A stretch of 32,000 nt of DNA from an uncultured archaeon (lineage in GTDB: Archaea; Iainarchaeota; Iainarchaeia; Iainarchaeales; Iainarchaeaceae): the NCBI GenBank assembly GCA_964577555.1, contig CAZNZM010000007.1:25586-57585 (forward strand), read 5' to 3'. The notes beneath the pieces are model-generated. The model was not told the origin of the DNA and did not search any database. It saw only the letters and a program-made list of their open reading frames with translations. Of the stretch, positions 163 through 27,227 are shown one piece after another (position 1 is the first letter of the stretch; the number at the start of each line of letters is the position of its first letter). The position numbers and the translations under genes were made by a program.

Positions 163-258
163 TGGGGACACAGGGATTTGAACCCCGATCCACCGGTATC
201 CCCAAAAACTTCTTTTTTGCTGGAGCCGGTTGCACTAACCTGGTTATGCTATGTCCCC
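163..258 (-). tRNA. tRNA-Trp (anticodon CCA) with a 22-nt intron at the canonical 37/38 position
   Basis: Minus strand reads GGGGACA-TA-GCAT-AACCAGGTTA-GTGC-A-ACCGG-CTCCAG[CAAAAAAGAAGTTTTTGGGGAT]A-CCGGT-GGAT-CGGGG-TTCAAAT-CCCTG-TGTCCCC-A. The 7-bp acceptor stem, D stem, anticodon stem and T arm with TTCAAAT loop all pair. The intron (198-219) contains a CAAAAA/TTTTTG helix. The mature length is 74 nt and no CCA is encoded. Confidence 0.8.
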
Positions 259-12784: not shown

Positions 12785-12824
12785 AAACAATACTTTAAAG
12801 CAATAATCCCTACACATTACAATC

Positions 12825-12840
12825 GGCAATGATGAGGTGA
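12825..12840. repeat. Left copy of 16-bp direct repeat GGCAATGATGAGGTGA (candidate attL core)
   Basis: Exact match to 23313-23328. It lies 67 bp upstream of the integrase ATG. An inward subterminal site GGCAATCATAGTAA lies at 12859-12872. Confidence 0.55.
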
Positions 12841-12906: not shown

Positions 12907-14199
12907 ATGGAATCAAAGGATGATTACAATCTGCGGTTTACCCTGCAAAAGCTTGGCAATTCGCCAATGCTTGCCTGCAACAAAGAGAAGCTTTTGGAAT
13001 ACTATAACGAAAAAGTCGCCAACGGCATCAAAAAAACAAGTTATGCTTTTGTCTTGCGAATTTTAATAAAGCTCGGAGAGCACTTTCCTGACAAAAAGTT
13101 TGAGGATGTTTCAAAACAGGAAATGGTTTCCTTCATTAACGGCTTGAAGCCTGAAAAACATGTTTTGCCCCAAAAGCACGGCGGAGTAGTTGTTTTTGAA
13201 AAAGCTGCTTTCAGCGATAACACATTATGGCAACTCAAAGCAGCGATTAAAACATTTTACCGTTGGCTTTTTGGCGTTGGCTCTACAGACACTCCGCCGG
13301 AAGCAGTGAAATGGATTAGGAAGGAAGGCCATTCCAATGGAAAGCTTGAGGACAATTTCAAGAAAGAAATTTTGTCTATTAAAGAAGTTACTGAACTGAT
13401 TAACTGCGCCCACAATCCTCGGGATAAGGCAGTAATTGCGATTTTGTGGGAATCCGGCTTGAGGGCTTCTGAATTTTTGGGAATGAAAAAGAGCTGTTTG
13501 CAATGGCACAACCAGTATGTTGAATTTGAAGCATCCGGAAAGACTGGAAAACGGAATGTTATCCTCGTTCAATCAAAGCCTCATTTGGAAATTTGGCTTA
13601 ACGAGTTGGAGCGCAGGAAAAGCCAGTTAGCGCCTGGCCTGCAGGATTGCATTTGGATTGCTTTTAACAAGAAGGGCCTGAGAAACAACACGCTTGGCAA
13701 CAAGCTGCTTACAAGAGACAATTTGAACAACATGCTCAAAATCAATGCCAAAAGAGCAGGCATTCAAAAAAGAGTTTGGACTCATGGTTTGAGGCATTCT
13801 GCAGCTACTCGCGATGCTGCTAATGGCTGGAATGAAGCAAAGCTCCGCATCAAATACGGTTGGAGCAAAAAAAGCAATATGCCAAGCACTTATACTCACC
13901 TTGCAAACAGCGATTTGAAGGATACTATTTTGGAAGAGAATGGGATTATTGAGCACAAGCAAAACCAACAAAAATCCCTATTGGAAAATACTGTAAAGTG
14001 CTTGTTTTGCTTCACAGCCAACTTGCAGGAAAACGATTACTGCACCAAATGCGGCAGGCCATTAAAAGAAGAACAATTCAAGGCATTAGAGAAAAAAGCC
14101 GAAACAACAGAAGTACTGCAAAAAATGATACAACAAGAACTAGAAAGCAAGGGCATTGACATTGCACAAATAGCAAAAATTTTGACAATAAATGGCTGA
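12907..14199 (+). CDS. Tyrosine recombinase / phage-type integrase with C-terminal zinc ribbon
   Basis: Catalytic residues are in order: ESGLRASEF (Arg), HGLRHSAATRDA (HxxR) and PSTYTHL (Tyr). A C-terminal CLFC...CTKCG zinc ribbon is present. Confidence 0.85.
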   Translation: MESKDDYNLRFTLQKLGNSPMLACNKEKLLEYYNEKVANGIKKTSYAFVLRILIKLGEHFPDKKFEDVSKQEMVSFINGLKPEKHVLPQKHGGVVVFEKAAFSDNTLWQLKAAIKTFYRWLFGVGSTDTPPEAVKWIRKEGHSNGKLEDNFKKEILSIKEVTELINCAHNPRDKAVIAILWESGLRASEFLGMKKSCLQWHNQYVEFEASGKTGKRNVILVQSKPHLEIWLNELERRKSQLAPGLQDCIWIAFNKKGLRNNTLGNKLLTRDNLNNMLKINAKRAGIQKRVWTHGLRHSAATRDAANGWNEAKLRIKYGWSKKSNMPSTYTHLANSDLKDTILEENGIIEHKQNQQKSLLENTVKCLFCFTANLQENDYCTKCGRPLKEEQFKALEKKAETTEVLQKMIQQELESKGIDIAQIAKILTING

Positions 14200-14392: not shown

Positions 14393-14731
14393 TTATTTTT
14401 GCTGCGGATTGATTTTCAGCATTTCAAGAATCAGCTTGTCAATCGCATCTTGTTGCTCTTTTGTAATCGTCCCAATTTTGCTTTTGAATCTGCTGTCATC
14501 CATTGCAGTTATTTGGAAAACGAGTGCAATACTGTCTTTGCTCAAGCCGTTTTCCGGCCTTGGCTCAATGTGCAAGGTAAAAGAAAAAGTTGCTTTGTCT
14601 GTGCTGCCGGTAAGTGGGATAATTGTGGTTAAACCGTTAGCTCTGCAAAGAACAACTGCTGGTCTTTCTCCTTTTTGTTCATGACCTTTGCCCTCTGGCA
14701 AGTCCACAAACCAGACTTCGCCTTTCCTCAT
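14393..14731 (-). CDS. mazF: MazF/PemK family endoribonuclease toxin
   Basis: MRKGEVWFVDLPEGKGHEQKGERPAVVL... and IIPLTGS... are the canonical PemK/MazF N-terminal and core motifs. Length is 112 aa. Confidence 0.85.
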   Translation of the reverse strand: MRKGEVWFVDLPEGKGHEQKGERPAVVLCRANGLTTIIPLTGSTDKATFSFTLHIEPRPENGLSKDSIALVFQITAMDDSRFKSKIGTITKEQQDAIDKLILEMLKINPQQK

Positions 14732-14737
14732 TCAAAA

Positions 14738-15268
14738 CTAGCTCCGTATTGATTTTGCTGATGCTTCCTGCCAAGGCTTCAACTCTGCTTTCAAATCTGC
14801 CAGTTCTTTTTCGCTTGGCCTGAACAAAAACTCTTTTGCTTTTGAAACACCAACAGCGATTTGTGCTTCAGAATAAAACGATTTCATTCTCTTTACATTT
14901 TTCAAAGCAGTTATTGGGTCTTGTTTTTGGCCAAATGCAAAAAAGGAATATGTTGCAGCAACTTCCAAGGCGCTGGGCTTTAACTCGGAAAACAATTCCT
15001 TAAATTCTTGAATGTCTTTTGATTCTGTGCTTGAAAGGTGTGCGGAGCTATCCAAATGCTCAATCTTTTTTCTATTTTCATAAACTTGGTCAGTCAAGTC
15101 TTTGGAATACGGCCCGCGGACATACAAATGAAAATTAAAGCCAGATTTTATGCCCTTCAAGTCCAAAAGATAAACTGCTTTTTGAATAATCAAGCGATCC
15201 TCAAAATCGTCAATCTTCGGCTTGAAACCCAACTCTTTAAAGCACGCAATAACTTTATCCAAATTCAT
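14738..15268 (-). CDS. Hypothetical protein, DUF4065/Panacea-like (candidate antitoxin for MazF)
   Basis: Lies 6 nt upstream of mazF. The start is set at the ATG forming an ATGA overlap with the upstream wHTH stop. IIQKAVYLLDLKG...YVRGPYSKDLTDQVYE resembles the DUF4065 pattern (..QK..YL...GP...ly). By-eye only. Confidence 0.45.
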   Translation of the reverse strand: MNLDKVIACFKELGFKPKIDDFEDRLIIQKAVYLLDLKGIKSGFNFHLYVRGPYSKDLTDQVYENRKKIEHLDSSAHLSSTESKDIQEFKELFSELKPSALEVAATYSFFAFGQKQDPITALKNVKRMKSFYSEAQIAVGVSKAKEFLFRPSEKELADLKAELKPWQEASAKSIRS

Positions 15269-15597
15269 TTTTTCACCCCACATTCAACTAATTTCTTCAA
15301 CCAATCTTTTATGTGCTCCCATGCCTGTTGACCTTCCTGAGTTATTTGGTAGGTTTCCAATTCTTTACCTTCCAAAGTAATCTTTTTTGAAGTAATATAA
15401 CTCATTTCTTTCAAGGCATTAAGATTTGTGTAAAGCGCCCCGTCACTAACTTGCAGAACCGCTTTCAATTCTCTGTAGGACACTCCATCTTGCCCAACGC
15501 TGGCGATGCTTGAAAGCAGTTGCAGCCGGATCAATGAAAAAACGCTTGAATTCAAAGCTTTTGACTCTTCAATCAAGGATAAAAAATCGCTATTCAT
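15265..15597 (-). CDS. Winged-helix transcriptional regulator (ArsR/PadR-like)
   Basis: LIRLQLLSSIASVGQDGVSYRELKAVLQVSDGALYTNLNALKEMSYITSKK...ETYQITQEGQ is a typical wHTH with a beta-hairpin wing. It is the first gene of the three-gene minus-strand unit. Confidence 0.7.
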   Translation of the reverse strand: MNSDFLSLIEESKALNSSVFSLIRLQLLSSIASVGQDGVSYRELKAVLQVSDGALYTNLNALKEMSYITSKKITLEGKELETYQITQEGQQAWEHIKDWLKKLVECGVKK

Positions 15598-15701: not shown

Positions 15702-15995
15702 ATGGTCAATCTCTACAGAAGAGGCAGGATTGCTGAAGGAAAGGTTGCAAGCGACCTTCGCTCCAAAGGCTTCAGAAACATTCGTCAAAGCGCTGGAAGC
15801 CGCGGGCCTGCTGACATTTACGCTTACAAGGGCGGTCAAAAATACTATGTTCAAGTAAAAAGCGGAACCGCAAGAATAAATTCCCAAGGCATAAACCGGC
15901 TGCGCAGACTGGCCAGAGACAGAGGCGGCACAGCAGTAGTCATTAACCGCCAAAACGCAAAAAATAAATGGCGCTTCTTTGGAAACTGGGGGTGA
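15702..15995 (+). CDS. Hjc-like PD-(D/E)xK nuclease (Holliday junction resolvase-like)
   Basis: RRGRIAEGKVASDLRSKGFRNIRQSAGSRGPADIYAYKGGQKYYVQVKSG is collinear with the archaeal Hjc core (..ER.l...L...Gf.v.R...S....D..A......iEvK). The E-x-K position reads Q-V-K. Confidence 0.6.
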   Translation: MVNLYRRGRIAEGKVASDLRSKGFRNIRQSAGSRGPADIYAYKGGQKYYVQVKSGTARINSQGINRLRRLARDRGGTAVVINRQNAKNKWRFFGNWG

Positions 15996-16000
15996 AATAA

Positions 16001-16195
16001 ATGGTTCAGAAACTGTTTGGATTGGGCCTTGGAGCAACAGGAATAGTTGGAGTTTTAATTGTAGCTGGAATACTCCTTAAAGGAGCAAATATTGCACCAA
16101 GCCAAGGCGACCTTGCAATTTCAGCAGGAATCGGTATAGGAGTAATCTTAGGCCTGCTCGGAATCTTCAGCGTGGTAAAAAGGTTGGCCTATTAG
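16001..16195 (+). CDS. Small two-helix glycine-zipper membrane peptide
   Basis: 64 aa with two hydrophobic helices rich in GxxxG (GLGLGATGIVGVLIVAG; GIGIGVILGLLGIF). ATG lies 5 nt after the nuclease stop, with GGGGTGA just upstream. Confidence 0.5.
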   Translation: MVQKLFGLGLGATGIVGVLIVAGILLKGANIAPSQGDLAISAGIGIGVILGLLGIFSVVKRLAY

Positions 16196-17220
16196 ATTCT
16201 TTGTTCAAAATAAGCTTTCCAGAATTTGGCGTTTTCTATTATTCTTTTTGCTATTTTGTCTGGTTCTGAAATATGTTCTGACAAAATCCCCGTCAATTCT
16301 TTTTCTCCTATTGCAGCCAAATCAGTGGTCTTTATGCTTTGGCACGAGACCTTTTTCATAATCCCTTCAAATATCGCATCATTGTTCTTTCGCAATTTTT
16401 CCAAATCAGACTTTTTAATTAAGTAATCCTCTACCAAGAATAACAAATTTGGCAATTCTATAATGTCTTTTGTTGAGATATTCTTCTTAAGTTTTATGTA
16501 TTCTACTACCTCTTGCGGTTTCATTATATCTTCTGCTTTTAAAATATCAAGAAATGTTCTAGCCTTTGTAACTATTTTCTTATCGCAAACCATTTTTCTT
16601 AAATCCACAACTATCGCAAAATTGATAATGTATTTGTAGTCCTTTGGCAACCCCTTGAGAACATTTCTTTTGATCCAACTTTTCAAATCAAATCCGACCT
16701 GTATAAAATCAGCTTTAACAGGGGGTAGAACGTAAATTCCATAACCAAATGTTTTGAAACCTAGCGATAGCAATTTTTTCTGAATTCGTTTTTTTGGTTC
16801 ATTATATTTTTGGATTATGATTGTTGGCAAAGGCGCATCTAATTTTGCAATTAGCTCTTCTTTGGTTATATTTTCTCTTTGTAGCATTTCATTTATTTTG
16901 TCCAGAAATTTTCTCAATTCACTTTTCTCAAATGTTGCTTCAGATTTTTCTTTTTCAAGCTTTTCAGATTTTTGCAATTCTGACTCATACTTTTGTTTAT
17001 ATTCTGTGACGGCTTTCTCGTAATCAGTTTTTGCTTTGTTCCCTTGGTAGTATTGATAAACTGAAAATAGTAGGCCAGCAAATCCAACTATAAAAGTAAT
17101 AAAACTAATCGCGCCCTGATCCACGTAAAAATAAAGCACACTACCCGCAGCAAGAATTAAGAGACTTACAACAGCAAACCATCGCTTTTTAAGTTCTTGA
17201 AAAATATTCTCTAATGGCAT
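16192..17220 (-). CDS. Membrane-anchored coiled-coil protein of unknown function (fourth gene of the R-M operon)
   Basis: The track start at 17256 is TTG inside res. The first ATG is at 17220 (MPLENIF...), 14 nt after the res stop. The protein has two TM helices, a charged heptad-like stretch KQKYESELQKSEKLEKEKSEATFEKSELRKFLDKINEM and a C-terminal domain of about 230 aa with no motif I recognise. Confidence 0.7.
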   Translation of the reverse strand: MPLENIFQELKKRWFAVVSLLILAAGSVLYFYVDQGAISFITFIVGFAGLLFSVYQYYQGNKAKTDYEKAVTEYKQKYESELQKSEKLEKEKSEATFEKSELRKFLDKINEMLQRENITKEELIAKLDAPLPTIIIQKYNEPKKRIQKKLLSLGFKTFGYGIYVLPPVKADFIQVGFDLKSWIKRNVLKGLPKDYKYIINFAIVVDLRKMVCDKKIVTKARTFLDILKAEDIMKPQEVVEYIKLKKNISTKDIIELPNLLFLVEDYLIKKSDLEKLRKNNDAIFEGIMKKVSCQSIKTTDLAAIGEKELTGILSEHISEPDKIAKRIIENAKFWKAYFEQRI

Positions 17221-17234
17221 AAATATGACAATTA

Positions 17235-19433
17235 TCAAATTTCCAAAATTTTCCAATTTGATAAATCAGTTAGGTTGTATTCATATTTTTCTTGATCATT
17301 GTAACGCCAAGTACCATTAATGCATATTGCTATTCCGCCCCAGAGTTTTCTGCCTTTTTTGTTTTGGTTTTTAATATATTTTTGCAACCCCTCTGCTCTA
17401 GGGCCAGCGTCGGATGTTTCTGCAGTTCTTCCCGATTTTGTATCAAGCAGACCAATTGTCCCGTCTTTTAATTGTATTATAAAATCAACATAAAAAGCTC
17501 TCTCATATTCATTCTCATCTTTGTATGGGACAGCAAAGTATTTGATTTCCGTTTCCCCATTTTTGAACCACCAGGCTACTTTAGCAGAGCCGTCTAATTT
17601 ATCAATGAATTGTCGTTCTGGCTCGCTTGGCTTTTTTGTGTAAAACGGCTTCATTATTGATTTTACATGCTCTTCCTTTTTGTAGTGGCTGTTATAACTT
17701 ATTATTACAGGCACTTCCCAATCCGGCACTGTTTTCTTTTCTCTTATTCCGTTTAGCCTTTCTGTAATGTGTTTTTGGTATTTTTCTTTTGCCAAGTTAA
17801 TTACATCAACAAAGGCCTGCACATTTTCTTTTCCCAGCACAAGTTTTTGAGCTCGAGGATGGTAACGGTCCAGTTTGAATTTTTGGCTTAAAAATTGATA
17901 AAGCGCTGTTTTCATTCTATCGCTTGAATCAGCAGGCGCATAGGGAATACAATTTTGTGAGATAAACTTATCCCAGACCTGCCTTAGTTCTGCTTCATTT
18001 AGCTGAATATCGATTTGGCCCTTGCGTTCTATTTCCCCCAATTTATCAACATCAACGATTTTGCCATCGGCAATAATTGGGCTAACTATTTTTGAAGGAT
18101 TATACGTTATCTTTTTTTCGAGTTTTGTTTCTTCTGCGACTTTCATAAAGATTTTTACAAAATCTCCAGAAAGTCTCGTTCTTTCCCTCTGCCTTTTTAA
18201 ATAAACAGATTCCAAACTAATGTTTTTGTATAGTTTGTTATCCCTTTTTGCTTCATAAACAGTAACATAATCCTTGGCGTAATCTTCAGTAATTTCTATA
18301 TTTGGCAGGTTTGTGAAAACAAAGCCCTTATTTAGCTCTGGCTCATTATAATATTTCAATTCTGGCATTCTCATTATTCTACCAATTGTCTGGATTGTAA
18401 AAGTAAAACTTTTTGATTCTCTAAAAATAAGCAGTATTTGTGCTCTTGGACAATCCCAACCTAATGCAGGGGCTTGTTTGAAAACAAGCACTTCAACTTC
18501 ATTTTCTGGCTTATCAATGTTTATTAAATTGTCAGATTTTTCTTCTGATAACCAAACAGCAAGTTTCCCGTTTCCCTCTACAATCTTGAATTTGTCTTTT
18601 AGTATCTTTAAGACCTCATCTTTTTTATTGATTAAACTGCTTTTTTGATCCGGCAATTGAATCAGAATTAATGGGTTAATGTTCGCTCCTTCCTTTTTAT
18701 AAAGTTTTAACAATTCTTCCCTTTTTTTTAAGGACTGTTCAATTACCAATTCATCAGAACTCTTTGTGCCAACTTTTATATCCAAAAATTCAGGGTTAAC
18801 GGCTATTTCCGATTTTATCATTTCCTCTGCTTTTACGTCACTTAAGTGCACTTTTTCTATTTCTGAAACATTTTCTTTCAAGTGTGGAGTTGCAGAGACT
18901 TCCAAAGTCACTTTTGGACCTATGACTTCAATTAACTCTCTTGATTTTTCAGAGCTTGCAGTATGGTGGCTCTCATCAATGACCAAGACTATTTCTCTTC
19001 CTTCTTCTTTCGTGTTTTGAATGATGCTGTTCAAATTGTTGTCCTGCTCGTTTTCTCGAACATAAATATTTATCTCTTTTTTGTTTATGCTGTGCCAATT
19101 AATGAACAGTATCTCATTTTCTCCAATCATTCGGTCTTCCAGGTCTTCAAAATACGAACATTGAAGCAAGCAGTCATCTTCATAGTATTTTTCCAGTTTT
19201 TCCTTACTTTGTTCGTGCAGCATCCTAACAGAAACCCATACAAAAGAAAATTTTTTGTCATCCTTTCTATTCTTCACTAATTGCTTTAATACCTCTGAAA
19301 CCATTACTGTTTTTCCTGAACCTGTTGGACTTTGAAAAATAACCACTTCGTGCTCTGCTGACCTTAAAGCATTCTCTATTTTTCTATGCAGGTTTTCAAC
19401 AGCTCTTCTCTGGTAGTCCCTTAAGTCTATCAT
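17235..19433 (-). CDS. res: Type III restriction enzyme Res subunit (SF2 helicase plus C-terminal PD-(D/E)xK nuclease)
   Basis: Helicase motifs in order: FQSPTGSGKT (I), VIDESHH (II, DExH), EVSATPH (III) and QTIGRIMRMP (VI). C-terminal YVDFIIQLKDGTIGLLDTKSG is nuclease-like. ATGA overlap with mod. Confidence 0.85.
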   Translation of the reverse strand: MIDLRDYQRRAVENLHRKIENALRSAEHEVVIFQSPTGSGKTVMVSEVLKQLVKNRKDDKKFSFVWVSVRMLHEQSKEKLEKYYEDDCLLQCSYFEDLEDRMIGENEILFINWHSINKKEINIYVRENEQDNNLNSIIQNTKEEGREIVLVIDESHHTASSEKSRELIEVIGPKVTLEVSATPHLKENVSEIEKVHLSDVKAEEMIKSEIAVNPEFLDIKVGTKSSDELVIEQSLKKREELLKLYKKEGANINPLILIQLPDQKSSLINKKDEVLKILKDKFKIVEGNGKLAVWLSEEKSDNLINIDKPENEVEVLVFKQAPALGWDCPRAQILLIFRESKSFTFTIQTIGRIMRMPELKYYNEPELNKGFVFTNLPNIEITEDYAKDYVTVYEAKRDNKLYKNISLESVYLKRQRERTRLSGDFVKIFMKVAEETKLEKKITYNPSKIVSPIIADGKIVDVDKLGEIERKGQIDIQLNEAELRQVWDKFISQNCIPYAPADSSDRMKTALYQFLSQKFKLDRYHPRAQKLVLGKENVQAFVDVINLAKEKYQKHITERLNGIREKKTVPDWEVPVIISYNSHYKKEEHVKSIMKPFYTKKPSEPERQFIDKLDGSAKVAWWFKNGETEIKYFAVPYKDENEYERAFYVDFIIQLKDGTIGLLDTKSGRTAETSDAGPRAEGLQKYIKNQNKKGRKLWGGIAICINGTWRYNDQEKYEYNLTDLSNWKILEI

Positions 19434-21100
19434 TTGAAAATCCTCTTGTAAACATTCAGAATAACTGCCGGAATTGGTCTTAATTCAACTAACTCGGTCA
19501 AATCTTCGAATTCTTCTTCTCTTGCACTTTCATCTAGAGAGAAGACATACACTACAAACTTTTTTTTCATTTTCTTGGCTTCTTTCTTAAAGGGTTCAAT
19601 CCCGTCATCGGAATAAATTATCCCCAAAAATTTCCCTTTAGAATTATTGTAAATTCGGAAATGCTTACCTTTCATTACCTCATCAAAACAATCCTCTTTC
19701 AAACACAACATTTCAGTTGATTTAGCCACGAGTTCTCTCTTGTTCTTATCAGTTGGTTCAGCGTCAACAAAACCAGTCGTAAAATATTTAAGGTTGACCT
19801 TAATTTTAGTTATTTCTGGATAGTCTTTATGCCCTTCAATAACTTTCTTTATTCTTGGATAACACACTTCTTCAGCTATTTTATTTTCATTATTCGTGCA
19901 CAAAATAAATTTTCTATCCGCGCCATCTTCTTTGTTCAAAATCATTACCGCATGGCCTGTTGTTCCTGATCCTGCAAAATAGTCTAAGATAATGGCATTT
20001 TTTCGTTCTGAAACTATTGGAGCCAAACAATCGTACGTGTTATAAACAGACTTTGGAAAATCAAACGATGAATTGGGAACAAGTGCGTGTACCAATTTTG
20101 TACCGTACTCCGCAGCATCATATTTGGGATTTTGCCAGACAGTTCTAACAGAGCCGTATGGCTTACCAATTTCGATTTCAATTCTATCATCAGATTTCTT
20201 AATTCTGAGCAAATCCTTTACAGATTCTACACTTTGTCTAGCATATCTCCATTTTCTTTCGACGCCAGTTATGTCAATGGGCCATACATAATATTTCCCG
20301 CCCCTCTCTTCAGTCTGTTTTCTTGGATGGAGATTATCTAGCGGCACTTCCCCAAAGCCCAAAATTTTATTGCCTTTAATTATTATTGGATAAAAACAAT
20401 TACGCGCATCTGTTCTTAGTGATTCTCCACCCCAGTTTCTCAGATTACTCCAGTATATTTCCTCTTCTCTCAATTTTCGAGTACCAATAACTTTCAATCC
20501 TTTTCTGAAAACAAAATAAGCATATTCATGCGTATAAGAAAAATTACTTCCTTGGATTCCTCTTGGGTTGTGCACAATTGTTATGCAATGTATTTCCCAA
20601 CCAGGAAATATTTCTTCTAGGAGACAGCCCAAATGGTGGAATTCATTGTCGTCAATTGCACAAATGAGCACGCCGTTTTGTTTCAATAAATTTCTTGCAA
20701 GTTTTAAGCGCTTTTCCATCATACTTAGCCATTTGCTGTGTCTCCAATGATCGTTAATGTCAACAAAGTCGTTATTGTATTTCCAGTCTTTTGCACCAGT
20801 GTTAAATGGCGGATCAATGTAAATTACATCAATCATTCCCTTGTGTGTGTAATTTAAAACAGAAAGTGCATGATAATTGTCGCCCTCAATTAGAATATTC
20901 GCTGATTTTGTTTTATCGGTTGCTATTTCCCTTTTTTTGACTTCTTCCAAAACAGGGAGTTTTTCTTTGCATAACTCTGCTACTTCTTCAGGCTTGTCTT
21001 CCCAAACTATTCCATACTTTCTCCTTAGGAGTTTATCTTTTTTTTCAAGTTCTTTAACCAAATCTGGCTTTGCCCAATTGGAATAATCTTTTTTAGCCAT
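19430..21100 (-). CDS. mod: Type III R-M Mod subunit (beta-class N6-adenine/N4-cytosine DNA methyltransferase)
   Basis: Motif IV DVIYIDPPFNTG precedes motif I ILDYFAGSGTTGHA. This is the beta permutation typical of Mod, with a variable region between them. Confidence 0.85.
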   Translation of the reverse strand: MAKKDYSNWAKPDLVKELEKKDKLLRRKYGIVWEDKPEEVAELCKEKLPVLEEVKKREIATDKTKSANILIEGDNYHALSVLNYTHKGMIDVIYIDPPFNTGAKDWKYNNDFVDINDHWRHSKWLSMMEKRLKLARNLLKQNGVLICAIDDNEFHHLGCLLEEIFPGWEIHCITIVHNPRGIQGSNFSYTHEYAYFVFRKGLKVIGTRKLREEEIYWSNLRNWGGESLRTDARNCFYPIIIKGNKILGFGEVPLDNLHPRKQTEERGGKYYVWPIDITGVERKWRYARQSVESVKDLLRIKKSDDRIEIEIGKPYGSVRTVWQNPKYDAAEYGTKLVHALVPNSSFDFPKSVYNTYDCLAPIVSERKNAIILDYFAGSGTTGHAVMILNKEDGADRKFILCTNNENKIAEEVCYPRIKKVIEGHKDYPEITKIKVNLKYFTTGFVDAEPTDKNKRELVAKSTEMLCLKEDCFDEVMKGKHFRIYNNSKGKFLGIIYSDDGIEPFKKEAKKMKKKFVVYVFSLDESAREEEFEDLTELVELRPIPAVILNVYKRIFK

Positions 21101-21103
21101 TGT

Positions 21104-21250
21104 TCAAACCTTCACATCGTTCTTCTTCAGTTCTTGTTCTACAAACAATTCAAACTGGCGAGAAATAATTAGGCCCTTCTTTTTGCAGTGTTCTTTATAT
21201 GCATTATACAGTCTCTCATCAACTTTCAAAGTAATGTTTTTACTGGCCAT
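21104..21250 (-). CDS. Ribbon-helix-helix (CopG/Arc-like) small DNA-binding protein, candidate controller of the R-M operon
   Basis: Own translation (not in track, 48 aa): MASKNITLKVDERLYNAYKEHCKKKGLIISRQFELFVEQELKKNDVKV. It shows a beta-strand then two helices, the RHH pattern. Its stop lies 3 nt before the mod ATG. Confidence 0.6.
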   Translation of the reverse strand: MASKNITLKVDERLYNAYKEHCKKKGLIISRQFELFVEQELKKNDVKV

Positions 21251-21276: not shown

Positions 21277-21284
21277 TTTATAAA
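21277..21284 (-). promoter_or_regulatory. TATA-like box upstream of the RHH-mod-res operon
   Basis: The minus strand reads ATATTTATAAAG, about 27-34 nt upstream of ATG 21250, consistent with a leaderless or short-leader archaeal promoter. Confidence 0.35.
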
Positions 21285-21527: not shown

Positions 21528-21557
21528 TTGACAAACTGGCAGGGGGTGTTTGTCAAG
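21528..21557. repeat. Palindromic element 1: TTGACAAAC-N11-GTTTGTCAA with G-string spacer
   Basis: Reads TTGACAAACTGGCAGGGGGTGTTTGTCAAG, with 9-bp perfect inverted arms. A near-identical copy lies at 21659-21687. Confidence 0.7.
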
Positions 21558-21658: not shown

Positions 21659-21687
21659 TTGACAAACAGGGCAGGGGTGTTTGTCAG
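21659..21687. repeat. Palindromic element 2: TTGACAAAC-N11-GTTTGTCAG
   Basis: Reads TTGACAAACAGGGCAGGGGTGTTTGTCAG. It lies 10 nt beyond the stop of the minus-strand ORF 21698..22228. Confidence 0.7.
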
Positions 21688-23112: not shown

Positions 23113-23312
23113 TTATCACCGGCACAAAAAAGCCACAGCAGGCCAGTTATAACTGCTTTGAAAGCTAGGCAGTTAGGCTGAGAATTTGCCAATCTTTTTA
23201 TCAGCCTAACCCGCCAAAATGCCATGAAAGGCAAGGCAACTGCAATTAACGCCTTGTAGCAAGTCAGGCTGGAACGTTAAGGTTTTTACTATCATTGCCT
23301 GACGATAACATA

Positions 23313-23328
23313 GGCAATGATGAGGTGA
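23313..23328. repeat. Right copy of 16-bp direct repeat GGCAATGATGAGGTGA (candidate attR core)
   Basis: Exact match to 12825-12840. The inward site TTACTATCATTGCC (23286-23299) is the reverse complement of GGCAATGATAGTAA. Confidence 0.55.
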
Positions 23329-23883: not shown

Positions 23884-26157
23884 ATGGGTTTTGTTTCGCA
23901 TCCTTTGATAAAGCCTGAACAAATAGAATCTAAGCTTTATCAAGAAGTGCTTGCTGCTCGTGCGCTTGAAAAGGGCAACACTTTGATAGTTGCTCCGACT
24001 GCGCTTGGTAAGACAATAATTGCGATACTTGTTGCTGCAGAAATACTTAAAAGAGGGCAGAAAGTTTTGTTTCTTTCTCCCACAAAGCCTTTGGCTGTTC
24101 AACATGGCGCATCCATGAAAAAATTTCTGAATGTTGATGAAAATCAAATAATAGTTCTTACAGGAGCACTTGGCAGGGAGAAAAGAATTCAAGCTCTTGA
24201 AAATGCTTTGGTTGTTTCTGCCACGCCACAGGCAATTCAAAATGACATTGTTTTGGGCCAATTTCCAATACAAGACTTTGGCTTGATTATTTTTGACGAA
24301 TGCCATAAAGCAGTTGGAAATTATAGTTACGTTTTTATTGCAGAACAATACATGCGCAATTGCAAAAATCCTCTTATACTTGGCTTGACGGCATCGCCTG
24401 GAGCGGACGACGAAAAAATTCAAAGCATTTGCAGAAATCTTTTTATTAAAAATGTGGAAGTGAAAACACACAACGATGCAGATGTAAAGGATTATGTCAA
24501 CCCCATAAATGTAAAATGGGTTCGCGTTGATTTGCCTGAAAAATTTCTTGAAGCAAAAAAATTGTTGGAAAAATTCCAAAAAAACCAAACAGATTCCTTG
24601 AAAGAAATGGGTTTCGGTTTAGGCAAAAAATATTTTTCAAAAAAAGACATGTTAATGTTGCAAAGCCAGGTAAGGCGAGATATAATATCAAAAGGAAAAA
24701 CCATGCCTTCTTTGTACGGCGCAGCAATGAAAATAGCTTCTTTGATAAAAGCTTCCTATGCTTTGGAACTTCTTGAAACCCAAGGCATAGAAGCGCTGAA
24801 TGCATATTTTGACAAAATATATGGCGAAAGCAAAGGCTCGAAGCCTTTGAAATCAGTCAAGCAATTAGTGTCAGATCCAAACATAATAAAGGCAAGGGAA
24901 ATAGCAAAAGAACTTTTAGATAAAAAAATGGTTCATCCGAAAATAGAAGTGTTGAAAAAAATTATTTTGGAACAATTCAAAAAAAATCCGGAAAGCAAAA
25001 TAATAGTTTTCAACCATTATCGCGAAAACATAAGAGCGCTTGAAAACCACCTTGCTGAAATTGAAGTAATCAGGGCAAAAAGATTTGTAGGCCAAGCATC
25101 CAAAGGAGATGACAAAGGACTCACGCAAAAAGAACAATCCGAAATAATAAATGATTTGAAAAACGGAAAGTATAATTGTCTTCTTGCTTCAAGCGTTGCA
25201 GAAGAAGGACTTGACATTCCTGAAGTTGATTTGGTAGTATTTTACGAGCCAGTGCCTTCAGAAATAAGATACATACAAAGAAGAGGTCGTACAGGAAGAA
25301 AAAACGAGGGAAACGTCGTCATTTTAATGGCCCGAAACACAAGGGATGAAGCATTTTATTATTCAAGCAAATCAAAAGAAAGAAAAATGCAAGAAGCCTT
25401 AAAGCAATTGCAAAAGCCTGAAGCAATACCGGAAAAAATTGCCAACAACGATAAGCAAACAACTTTGTTGGGTTTTATTCAAAACGAAAAAAAAGTCGCT
25501 ATATTCATAGATACAAGGGAACAGGCTTCAAGCATTGTTTCTGAATTGCAAAAATTTGATGTTGAAATAAAAATAAAGCAATTAGATGTAGGAGACTTCA
25601 TATTAAGCAATGATGTAGTGGTTGAAAGAAAAACAATCGAGGATTTTTTGAGTTCGGTAATTGACGGAAGGCTTTTCAATCAACTCACCTTGATGTCTTC
25701 AACATATGCCGCTCCACTGATAATTTTGGAAGGCAAGCCGGAAGAACTCTATACAACCAGAAACATTCACGAAAATGCTGTTAGAGGAATTCTTGCCTCA
25801 ATTGCATTGAATTACAGAATCCCAATACTTTTCACAGCAGGAGTGGAAGAAACAGCAAAATTGCTTTTTATAATGGCTAAAAGAGAGCAACTTGGCACTG
25901 AGAAGGAAATAAGATTAAGATTTGGGCGGAAAGGCTTGACAATGCAAGAACAGCAACAATTCATATTGGAAGGTTTTCCAATGGTGGGCCCAAGCCTTGC
26001 AAAGTCGCTTCTCAAAAAATTTGGGACAATCAGGGCTATTGTTTGCGCTACTGTAAAGGAACTTCAAGAAGTTGAAAACATGGGGCCAATAAAAGCAAAA
26101 AAGATACATGAAATATTGAATGCATATTACAATCAAGAAAACAATAATGATTCATAA
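23884..26157 (+). CDS. hef: Hef: SF2 helicase fused to ERCC4/XPF nuclease and HhH2 (fork-structure endonuclease)
   Basis: APTALGKT (I), FDECHKA (II), LTASPG (III) and QRRGRTGR (VI). The ERCC4 core follows (IFIDTREQ...VVERKTIEDFLSSVIDGRL), then a C-terminal HhH (GFPMVGPSLAKSLLKKFG). Confidence 0.9.
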   Translation: MGFVSHPLIKPEQIESKLYQEVLAARALEKGNTLIVAPTALGKTIIAILVAAEILKRGQKVLFLSPTKPLAVQHGASMKKFLNVDENQIIVLTGALGREKRIQALENALVVSATPQAIQNDIVLGQFPIQDFGLIIFDECHKAVGNYSYVFIAEQYMRNCKNPLILGLTASPGADDEKIQSICRNLFIKNVEVKTHNDADVKDYVNPINVKWVRVDLPEKFLEAKKLLEKFQKNQTDSLKEMGFGLGKKYFSKKDMLMLQSQVRRDIISKGKTMPSLYGAAMKIASLIKASYALELLETQGIEALNAYFDKIYGESKGSKPLKSVKQLVSDPNIIKAREIAKELLDKKMVHPKIEVLKKIILEQFKKNPESKIIVFNHYRENIRALENHLAEIEVIRAKRFVGQASKGDDKGLTQKEQSEIINDLKNGKYNCLLASSVAEEGLDIPEVDLVVFYEPVPSEIRYIQRRGRTGRKNEGNVVILMARNTRDEAFYYSSKSKERKMQEALKQLQKPEAIPEKIANNDKQTTLLGFIQNEKKVAIFIDTREQASSIVSELQKFDVEIKIKQLDVGDFILSNDVVVERKTIEDFLSSVIDGRLFNQLTLMSSTYAAPLIILEGKPEELYTTRNIHENAVRGILASIALNYRIPILFTAGVEETAKLLFIMAKREQLGTEKEIRLRFGRKGLTMQEQQQFILEGFPMVGPSLAKSLLKKFGTIRAIVCATVKELQEVENMGPIKAKKIHEILNAYYNQENNNDS

Positions 26158-26204
26158 AAAAATTGAAATCTAAGACGCTTCAAAGGTTTTTCTCACTTTT
26201 GTTT

Positions 26205-26690
26205 TATCGGAATTTTTTACAATTAAATTTTTTTGGCTTTTCTAGCCAAGTTTTAGACTTTTTTTGAATTTGAATTTGTTTTTTTTGATTTATTTTATTT
26301 TTTTGTCTTTGTTGGCTTGTTTTTTTTGTTTGAATTTTTGTTTTTTTTATCGTGCTGTTTTTTGTTATTTTTCTTTTTTTGAATTCTTTTTTTTGCGAGC
26401 CAATTTTTTTGTTTGAATTTTTGTTTTTTTTGGCTTGTTTTTTTTAGTCATTTTTTTGTGAATTTGTTTTTTTTGATTTGCTTGGTTCTTTAATTTGAAA
26501 AATTATTTTTTTGCAAGCCATTTTTTGGGGCGATTTTTTTTAAGTTTTGATTTTTTTGGTGTTTGTTTTTTTGCAGTATTTTTTTTGAGTCGACTTTTTT
26601 TTTAATTTTGGGATTTTTGTAGAAATAAATTATTTTTTTGTTTTTTCTTTTTCTTTTTGGCTAAATAAATTTTCGTCTTTTTTTTATTCA
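26205..26690. repeat. Strand-asymmetric oligo-T array 1 (about 25 T6-T9 runs with short G-containing spacers)
   Basis: Direct reading. T runs are separated by the words GAATTTG, GC(G/A)AGCCA and GGCTTG. A 28-bp exact internal duplicate lies at 26321-26348 and 26404-26431. Confidence 0.85.
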
Positions 26691-26699
26691 GTTTCACTT

Positions 26700-27227
26700 T
26701 TATTTTTCCAATGTGACAAAAGCTGTTTTTTCCACTACAAGCATTTCAATGTTATTTTTAACATCTTTTACTGAGTTTAATTCGTCTTCTGAAATTTCGT
26801 AAATTTTCATTAGTTCGGCTTTGTTATTGCCCAATTTTTCCAAAATTTGTTTTTTTTCTTCAAAATCAAGCAACTTTATGATTTCATTTATTTTATTTTT
26901 GTTGTTTTCCTCGATCACAAGCAATAAATCTTCATTTCCAAAAACACTTTTGTCAATCGCTTTTGATATTTGTCTCTCACCAAGTACGCGAACAATAAAT
27001 TCAATATTAGGGTTTTGTGAAAATGCAACTCCTGAATCAATTGCAGCAATTGTCCTAGCTAGAGCGGTTTTTAAATGAAATTTTCCTGCTACAATTTTTG
27101 CCGGAATTATTTGGCAAAGATTGTTTTTTCCTAAAAGCGCAAGCTTTTTAATAGTCGCGTTATATGAATCATTAGATATTTTTCCGGAAAAAACCGTGAA
27201 AAATTTTTTTCCAATTGAAATTTTCAT
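26700..27227 (-). CDS. cgi121: KEOPS complex subunit Cgi121
   Basis: Collinear with archaeal Cgi121 as I recall it: ...AKIVAGKFHLKTALARTIAA..., IEFIVRVLGERQISKAIDK (the ..sGqRQI..Ai.. motif), and C-terminal IEMLVVEKTAFVTLEK. Confidence 0.7.
   Translation of the reverse strand: MKISIGKKFFTVFSGKISNDSYNATIKKLALLGKNNLCQIIPAKIVAGKFHLKTALARTIAAIDSGVAFSQNPNIEFIVRVLGERQISKAIDKSVFGNEDLLLVIEENNKNKINEIIKLLDFEEKKQILEKLGNNKAELMKIYEISEDELNSVKDVKNNIEMLVVEKTAFVTLEK

Follow-up and report, generated by a model that had tools for sequence, protein, structure and literature searches.

A 32,000-nt stretch of DNA from an uncultured archaeon of the Iainarchaeaceae (GenBank assembly GCA_964577555.1, contig CAZNZM010000007.1, positions 25,586 to 57,585; called the window in the following) contains a type III restriction-modification (R-M) operon that ends with a gene for a 342-aa protein, here designated X. 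X does not belong to type III systems specifically. Most likely it is an accessory, anchored in the cell envelope and promiscuous in its partners, of operons for DNA-targeting defence, and it is a credible candidate for a defence accessory.

The four genes of the operon lie on the minus strand and form one tight co-directional unit of about 5.1 kb, with spacings of 3, -4 and 14 nt. A 48-aa open reading frame (ORF) resembling ribbon-helix-helix (RHH) proteins comes first (21104-21250) and is followed, after a 3-nt gap past its stop codon, by mod (556 aa, 19430-21100); res (732 aa, 17235-19433) overlaps mod by the 4 nt of an ATGA motif, and X (16192-17220, with the start codon ATG at 17220 and the stop at 16192) begins 14 nt past the res stop codon. 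A first-pass annotation, made by a model from the sequence alone, had proposed the same four packed genes, and an ORF scan together with reading of the sequence reproduced both their positions and all three junctions. An in-frame TTG further upstream, at 17256, would lengthen X into res; the ATG at 17220 is preferred because the N-termini of the homologues support it, and not the TTG. The packing exceeds chance; the adjacency of res and X recurs in an independent contig (locus L005).

The gene neighbourhoods of X homologues were compared in 21 non-redundant loci, the window included. In 12 of these a known defence gene adjoins X on the same strand, either overlapping it or at a distance of 6-160 nt (often 6-50 nt), and X is usually the last gene of its defence operon. 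The neighbour belongs to an R-M system in six loci, which represent four distinct systems, and is another recognised defence gene in the other six. Type III res precedes X in the window and also in L005, in which the distance is 37 nt and the Res and X proteins are 74% and 51% identical, respectively, to those of the window. A type II system is found in L004, and the same system in L013/L014: the genes for a 307-aa candidate restriction endonuclease (REase) and a type II methyltransferase (MTase) are followed after 6-9 nt by X, with Avs2 alongside. The C-terminus of the same MTase is encoded 9 nt upstream of X in L010, the X protein of which is 74% identical to that of L004. An EcoRI-like MTase and a GmrSD_N-HNH REase are followed by X in L019, and in L021 it is X that is followed by a IIG/mad2-like MTase.

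Outside R-M, X lies behind Shedu SduA (L006), behind a PsyrT/ShosT-like protein (L016), and in overlap with a DUF4238 gene (L018), DUF4238 being a reported defence gene. In L002/L003 and in L007 X stands beside a HerA/mad8-like ATPase, which is 71% identical between the two, with a TIR-like gene and a ThaI R-M system nearby in L002; in L001 the ATPase is 36% identical, the order is inverted, and SduA_C and an MvaI/BcnI R-M system follow. Three pairings, Res-X, MTase-X and ATPase-X, are kept across divergence at the identities just given. Together with the same-strand adjacency in 12 of 21 loci, their persistence is hard to explain by chance.

The proposal of the first-pass annotation depended on homologues of X co-localising with R-M or other defence genes, and this is what these 12 loci show. 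The same annotation regarded X as an extension of the type III system, a view that had to be given up: the closest relatives (51-53% identity) are encoded behind a type II MTase, and others are found with Shedu, a HerA-like ATPase, DUF4238 or a IIG-like MTase. On the whole, its interpretation is supported in part. The position of X after MTases in L004, L014 and L010 also prompted the reading of X as a hidden type II REase, which was rejected because L014 has its separate 307-aa candidate REase, L019 has an REase of its own, and X is without a conserved nuclease motif.

The loci themselves contain several observations in their own right. The HerA/FtsK-like (PADLOC mad8-like) ATPase of about 530-600 aa (L002 3204-5003, L007 3-1040, L001 6320-7906) has at its C-terminus a weak winged helix-turn-helix (wHTH) match and a 'DFDIEIETGLKHD' motif resembling PD-(D/E)xK nucleases, and may be an undescribed ATPase-nuclease defence gene. 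In L014 (8138-13553), from a metagenome-assembled genome of an uncultured archaeon, the operon of candidate REase, type II MTase and X is convergent with a 777-aa Avs2-like ORF (PADLOC E 8.5e-227), which covers only the C-terminal half of the Avs2 models of about 1500 residues; the region is a compact archaeal defence island. L017 (4441-6951, minus strand) encodes an 836-aa fusion of a LexA DNA-binding domain, an S24 peptidase, a IIG-like N6 MTase and a TaqI_C specificity domain, which, judged from these domains, would be an unusual, SOS-cleavable MTase. In Natrinema thermotolerans (CP031304; L020 8716-9714) an intact 332-aa X homologue has no coding sequence listed in the PLSDB gene table, and in Natrinema sp. 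SYSU A 869 (L025 7067-7680) the homologue, which lies next to parA, is annotated in two pieces, each as a 'hypothetical protein', and is probably a pseudogene.

X had no family match in Pfam, NCBIfam, PADLOC (0 families at E<=0.01) or PHROGs; the PADLOC-DB used was the 2023 version (PADLOC v2), which covers systems described up to then. On these results a housekeeping membrane family was rejected. A viral origin was rejected as well, as no homologue was found in the phage and viral collections (INPHARED phages, IMG/VR, PHROGs, and the viral structures of BFVD, in which the X model had no significant match). A word-indexed database contained only 13 relatives, and a profile search of it yielded no further ones. 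An exhaustive profile search of 1.84 billion representatives gave 113 clusters (50% identity representatives) at E<=1e-3, 85 of them at E<=1e-10, and nearly all full-length matches were 290-420 aa long. On sequence evidence, the X family is genuine, modest in size and of one architecture.

Family statistics and the input for AlphaFold were based on a 64-sequence alignment. The AlphaFold (AF2) model of X has a predicted local distance difference test (pLDDT) value of 93 and a predicted TM-score (pTM) of 0.72. A two-helix transmembrane hairpin (residues 13-56; 17053..17184, minus strand, as for all parts of X) is indicated by Kyte-Doolittle peaks at residues 15-33 and 33-51 (2.26 and 1.67) and by the AF2 helices 3-32 and 36-115. 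The predicted topology is N-in/C-in with the downstream parts in the cytoplasm, because KKR precedes the first transmembrane helix, the loop reads DQG, and lysines follow the second helix. The latter runs on as a stalk of about 60 residues (block-mean pLDDT 89-96 for residues 51-120), and residues 57-115 (16876..17052) form a charged heptad coiled coil, in which 46% of the residues are charged and the 3.5-residue hydrophobic periodicity was matched by 0 of 2000 shuffles. Residues 128-210 (16591..16839) are modelled as a basic domain with DSSP strands at 132-139, 162-165 and 198-206 and helices at 145-152 and 179-186; an extra strand, 156-159, was present in the first model. The modelled topology, beta-alpha-beta-beta-alpha-beta, is that of a ferredoxin-like fold. 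The C-terminal domain (residues 216-342; 16195..16575) is all-helical and conserved.

Conservation and charge differ along the protein. P166, P167, W182, D206, T222, A331 and W334 are conserved family-wide; LPP, W182 and D206 belong to the ferredoxin-like domain, and T222, A331 and W334 to the helical one. The middle domain has a charge of +10 (residues 116-215; family median +5) and is basic in 77% of the members, and the C-terminal domain is acidic in 81% (median charge -3). At least one transmembrane segment was found in 46 of 64 members; the N-termini of the others are hydrophobic or amphipathic, and the coiled coil always comes next. The membrane module, which can be a hairpin, a single transmembrane segment or an amphipathic helix only, is the least conserved part of the family. 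As the anchor varies but the stalk and the cytoplasmic module are conserved, location at the membrane seems to count for more than any defined pore. X itself is predicted with confidence to be membrane-anchored by the hairpin, the coiled coil spacing the cytoplasmic module from the membrane. The two transmembrane helices and the charged coiled coil of the first-pass annotation are thus borne out for X by the model, hydropathy and periodicity, but the transmembrane helices do not extend to about 28% of the family (18 of 64 members below the threshold); its remark that the C-terminal region carries no recognised family motif agrees with the database searches.

Profile-HMM, AlphaFold and Foldseek analyses thus resulted in a confident model and no significant family or fold match. 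Foldseek of the X model against the PDB gave 0 matches at E<=1e-3, and the best weak matches, for the alpha/beta domain, were VapD and Cas2 (E 0.3-2, TM-score 0.43-0.55 normalised to the target). In Cas2 and VapD, a catalytic Asp is conserved at the point where strand beta1 ends. This Asp is absent in the 64-sequence alignment, which has K/Y/F at position 138 and E/Q at 141; of the acidic residues, only D206, where beta4 ends, is strongly conserved. The only recurrent Pfam match was PaaX_M (PF20803, 'Cas2-like'), found in nine of 64 members at E<=5 (best E 3.8e-4). The individually listed scores of 12.6-17.2 bits are all below the gathering cut-off of 24, and the matches, where the region was listed, fall on the 'L..LGF.....G.y.LPP' segment. 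PaaX was compared both as the E. coli protein (verified against 8a39) and as a profile; with the latter, hhalign aligned X 133-171 with PaaX 111-151 (beta1-alpha1-beta2-beta3) at E 0.44, and Foldseek lists PaaX 8a39 over 234 columns with E 3.3, a TM-score of 0.16-0.18 and a root mean square deviation of 14 A. Neither the N-terminal wHTH (PF07848) nor PaaX_C (PF08223) was reported in any of the 64 members. The right segment of PaaX thus aligns, but significance is not reached. X resembles Cas2, VapD and PaaX_M in topology, with Cas2 and VapD as the top Foldseek matches and sub-threshold matches recurring on the PaaX_M segment, but differs from them in the missing beta1-end Asp, wHTH and PaaX_C and in its fusion to an anchor and a coiled coil. 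On the model, residues 128-210 are a ferredoxin-like domain, possibly related to Cas2 and PaaX_M.

For the C-terminal domain, Foldseek gave weak matches only (E>1), to helix-hairpin-helix (HhH) proteins and PaaX. The idea of an HhH DNA-binding module (EndoIII, TDG, ROS1 and the Rad51 N-terminus, E 1-4) was down-weighted in view of the acidic character of the domain in 81% of the members.

We favour, with a probability of roughly 40%, that X is an envelope-anchored oligomeric accessory, the basic domain of which would bind nucleic acid or a loaded partner and so tie DNA-targeting defence to the membrane on its inner side. Gene order, family, predicted architecture and neighbourhood pattern are direct results, whereas we infer each of the mechanistic steps. 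In this picture X would connect varied DNA-targeting systems with the cell envelope and, through its coiled coil and Cas2-like domain, would assemble into dimers or oligomers. Nucleic acid, or a partner that is loaded on it, would be held by the basic domain, and the membrane anchor would confine this activity to the inside of the envelope, the entry site of foreign DNA. There, X might concentrate or activate the neighbouring nuclease, or signal its engagement, with the RHH protein autoregulating the operon.

Several results weigh against this explanation. A recognised defence gene is not adjacent in 9 of the 21 loci, and the sampled contigs are few and mostly short. The four haloarchaeal plasmid copies lie in mobile-element regions, one of them as a probable split pseudogene. 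Partners differ even between X proteins that are 51-53% identical (type III versus type II R-M), and such a change of partner between close relatives argues against a specific protein-protein partnership. The likeness to Cas2 and PaaX_M is sub-threshold throughout (E>=0.3 in Foldseek, scores under the Pfam gathering cut-off, and E 0.44 in hhalign), so that charge alone points to nucleic-acid binding by X. In addition, the acidic C-terminal domain is unlike a DNA-binding module.

The alternative that survives best, which we nevertheless regard as somewhat unlikely, is that X is a passenger of mobile elements without a functional tie to R-M. It might, for instance, anchor the DNA of an element in the membrane, act in exclusion or in blocking entry, or serve maintenance; it would share variable islands with defence genes and would have become part of operons merely because cassettes are compact. 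The highly heterogeneous partners fit such a passenger. So does the mobile setting of X, which in the window is carried by an integrase island with a 19-nt repeat at its ends, and in L021 by an element that also encodes an NrS1-1-type primase-polymerase. The four haloarchaeal plasmid copies (L020, L023-L025) are found among integrase, resolvase, ParA and insertion sequence (IS) genes with no adjacent R-M, and no recognised defence gene is immediately adjacent in L011, L012, L015 and L017, nor in L022, where a MORC-like HATPase_c_3 gene is nearby and convergent. However, 12 of 21 loci with such adjacency are many more than the density of defence genes in genomes would give, three different pairings have outlasted substantial divergence, and the phage and viral collections hold no homologue.

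Less probable still is that X is an abortive-infection (Abi) effector, the hairpin of which, oligomerised by the coiled coil, would form a pore or disrupt the membrane once the cytoplasmic domains detect inhibition or overloading of the neighbouring DNA-targeting system. In this role X would be a further line of defence that guards R-M, like PrrC with EcoprrI or the SLATT effectors with two transmembrane helices (2TM). According to a published review, accessory genes regarded as Abi toxins indeed occur in some R-M systems, for example PrrC in EcoprrI, and accessory genes of R-M loci are usually read in this way (PMC12707154). X takes the last place in the operon, and its sequence has diverged more quickly than that of Res (51% versus 74% identity). 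Like SLATT/2TM effectors, it has an N-terminal 2TM hairpin followed by a long helix, and weak matches were obtained for four members: X and P0005 match SLATT_6 (NF033630; E about 0.01, for X 0.01 at 15.5 bits) over the 2TM-plus-helix region, and two further members of the 64 match PF18169 SLATT_6 (E 0.013); one member matches S_4TM. These matches are leads only, as about 15 bits compare with a curated cut-off of 100. Moreover, none of the X loci inspected has SMODS, SLOG or reverse transcriptase neighbours, X contains no sensor-type domain (SAVED, CARF, STING or NTPase), and a membrane module that is not conserved in the family, with 18 of 64 members below the transmembrane threshold, fits an anchor better than a defined pore.

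It is very improbable that X is a membrane-sequestered regulator, its Cas2-like and helical domains forming a PaaX-like ligand-binding module, that has lost its wHTH and tunes the expression or activity of the operon via a small molecule or an envelope signal: PaaX_M is the sole repeated Pfam match and both 8a39 and hhalign point to PaaX, the latter over the beta1-alpha1-beta2-beta3 segment, but these similarities are non-significant, no DNA-binding HTH and no PaaX_C are detected, and the operon already has an RHH regulator of its own.

To return to the envelope-anchored accessory, a more far-reaching version of it, which at present seems rather doubtful, is that X is the first of a new, mainly archaeal class of envelope-anchored adaptors, a modular 'membrane arm' with a fold without a solved match that unrelated DNA-targeting immune systems would share (type II, IIG-like and type III R-M, Shedu, and HerA-type ATPase-nucleases). 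Its role could be spatial coupling to the DNA entry site or a membrane-based abortive back-up.

Comparable arrangements are known from bacteria. In Zorya, the ZorAB membrane complex with its long cytoplasmic coiled-coil tail acts together with a nuclease-helicase (ZorC/ZorD), and Kiwa consists of the membrane protein KwaA and the DNA-binding KwaB. A plausible shared logic would be to couple what happens at the envelope to an attack on DNA nearby. The membrane component adjoining a DNA-targeting helicase or nuclease gene and the cytoplasmic coiled coil make these systems functional analogues only: X matches no Zorya or Kiwa PADLOC model, has no homology to them, and is a single small protein with a 2TM hairpin and without a MotAB-like motor. 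PrrC (type IC EcoprrI locus) and RloC, which are anticodon nucleases of the ABC-ATPase kind, are soluble and go with type I systems. They resemble X in being an extra non-R-M gene within or at the end of an R-M operon, and accessories that back up restriction are an established concept (PMC12707154), whereas X lacks ATPase and nuclease motifs, is anchored in the membrane, has varied partners and shows no sequence similarity to them.

Neither the R-M system nor the notion that R-M loci can contain accessory genes is new (PMC12707154). In contrast, the X family seems to be undescribed, as do its fold and its promiscuous partnering, and literature searches found nothing; it should be noted that many uncharacterised families are enriched in defence islands. 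Archaeal immunity is far less explored than bacterial immunity, and the usual view of R-M systems is that of closed units of two genes. X, a conserved and structurally unmatched membrane protein, recurs at the end of several kinds of DNA-targeting defence operon. If X is functional, classical restriction might be wired to the envelope, as with the bacterial Zorya and Kiwa, or backed up by a membrane effector, and a reusable accessory module would join the defence repertoire. X is a clonable target, and natural 'swap' variants with other partners exist for comparison.

The R-M genes of the window are, by their domains and motifs, a bona fide type III pair. Mod matches PF01555 (2e-24) and PADLOC MTase_III (4.1e-73), and the motifs IDPPF (DPPF) and FAGSGTTG can be read in the sequence, as for an N6/N4 (beta-class) DNA methyltransferase. 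Res is a superfamily 2 (SF2) helicase (ResIII 8.1e-25; PADLOC REase_III 1.4e-17) with GSGKT and DESH motifs read from the sequence; Helicase_C is sub-threshold (21.0 bits versus a cut-off of 23.5), and a C-terminal PD-(D/E)xK-like motif, D...LLDTK, was spotted by eye only. Type III R-M consists of the two genes mod and res, with ATP-dependent cleavage that needs two inversely oriented unmethylated sites. The RHH and X genes are thus outside the canonical definition. The pair resembles classical systems (EcoP15I/EcoP1I) in its N6/N4 MTase motifs, SF2 core, PD-(D/E)xK-like motif and overlap of mod and res; it differs from them in the RHH-like gene upstream, the membrane-protein gene 14 nt downstream, the short Res (732 aa) and the archaeal host.

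The 48-aa ORF has no Pfam match at E<=0.01. Its NCBIfam matches are below the cut-offs (TIGR02384 RelB_DinJ, E 0.005, 17 bits versus 45.65; RelB_ParD, E 0.0096), and in the PDB it comes closest to the ParG RHH domain (E 1.1, residues 4-45). The sequence thus makes an RHH DNA-binding protein plausible, and the length of 48 aa corresponds to the DNA-binding part alone. The first-pass annotation had called it an unannotated RHH gene; sub-threshold matches are what speaks for RHH, and the gene is not unannotated, as JGI names it 'antitoxin component of RelBE/YafQ-DinJ module'. In the simplest reading, it probably autoregulates the operon in the manner of a C-protein controller. As in C-protein-controlled R-M, and as with RelB, DinJ and ParG, a gene for a small DNA-binding protein lies directly upstream and co-oriented; classical C proteins, however, are HTH proteins of type II systems, whereas here an RHH-like protein (by sub-threshold matches only) precedes a type III system.

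About 30 nt upstream of the ATG of the RHH gene, a TATA-box-like element, TTTATAAA, was read from the sequence (21277..21284, minus strand). It is a candidate for the archaeal promoter of the operon, the transcript of which would be leaderless or have a very short 5' untranslated region; since the region is AT-rich, a chance match is plausible. A T5 run (16177..16181, minus strand), 11 nt beyond the X stop and within the convergent 64-aa ORF described below, is a possible archaeal oligo-T terminator. Both elements would be consistent with a single archaeal transcription unit. Further upstream, the 447-nt spacer between the RHH gene and a gene for a 176-aa protein contains two copies of a 28-nt palindromic element, TTGACAAAC-N10-GTTTGTCA (21528-21555 and 21659-21686), 131 nt apart, the first of which begins 12 nt past the stop of the 176-aa gene. 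Operator sites or terminator hairpins are conceivable; the z-score for RNA folding is only -1.8.

The host is archaeal, as the contig carries genes for a histone, a Hef-type helicase-nuclease and CGI-121 beside the island in which the operon lies. This island is bounded by a 19-nt direct repeat. The left copy, ATCGGCAATGATGAGGTGA (12822..12840, plus strand), is located 67 nt upstream of a tyrosine integrase gene (12907-14199, PF00589), and the right copy (23310..23328, plus strand), 18/19 identical to the left one, abuts the histone gene. The segment of about 10.5 kb between the repeats contains the integrase, a MazF module, small uncharacterised genes and the R-M operon with X, and is probably an integrated mobile island with att-like ends.

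Two small units lie within this segment. Three minus-strand genes (14393-15597) encode a wHTH protein (HTH_34/PadR-like, 110 aa), a 181-aa protein that weakly matches a DarG-like antitoxin, and a MazF/PemK toxin (112 aa); they are probably a toxin-antitoxin module with an unusual antitoxin. On the plus strand (15702-16195) and convergent with X, a 97-aa Hjc/Mrr_cat-like mini-nuclease is followed after 5 nt by a 64-aa protein of two glycine-rich hydrophobic helices, the stop codon of which overlaps that of X by 4 nt; this pair may be another small defence or toxin module. Elsewhere in the window, a 96-nt tRNA was detected by Rfam (163-258, minus strand, 53.7 bits) and missed by ARAGORN, its extra length suggesting an archaeal intron-containing tRNA. 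Finally, a sharp GC trough (0.25 versus about 0.36 elsewhere) at 26001-27000 coincides with a strongly negative AT skew.

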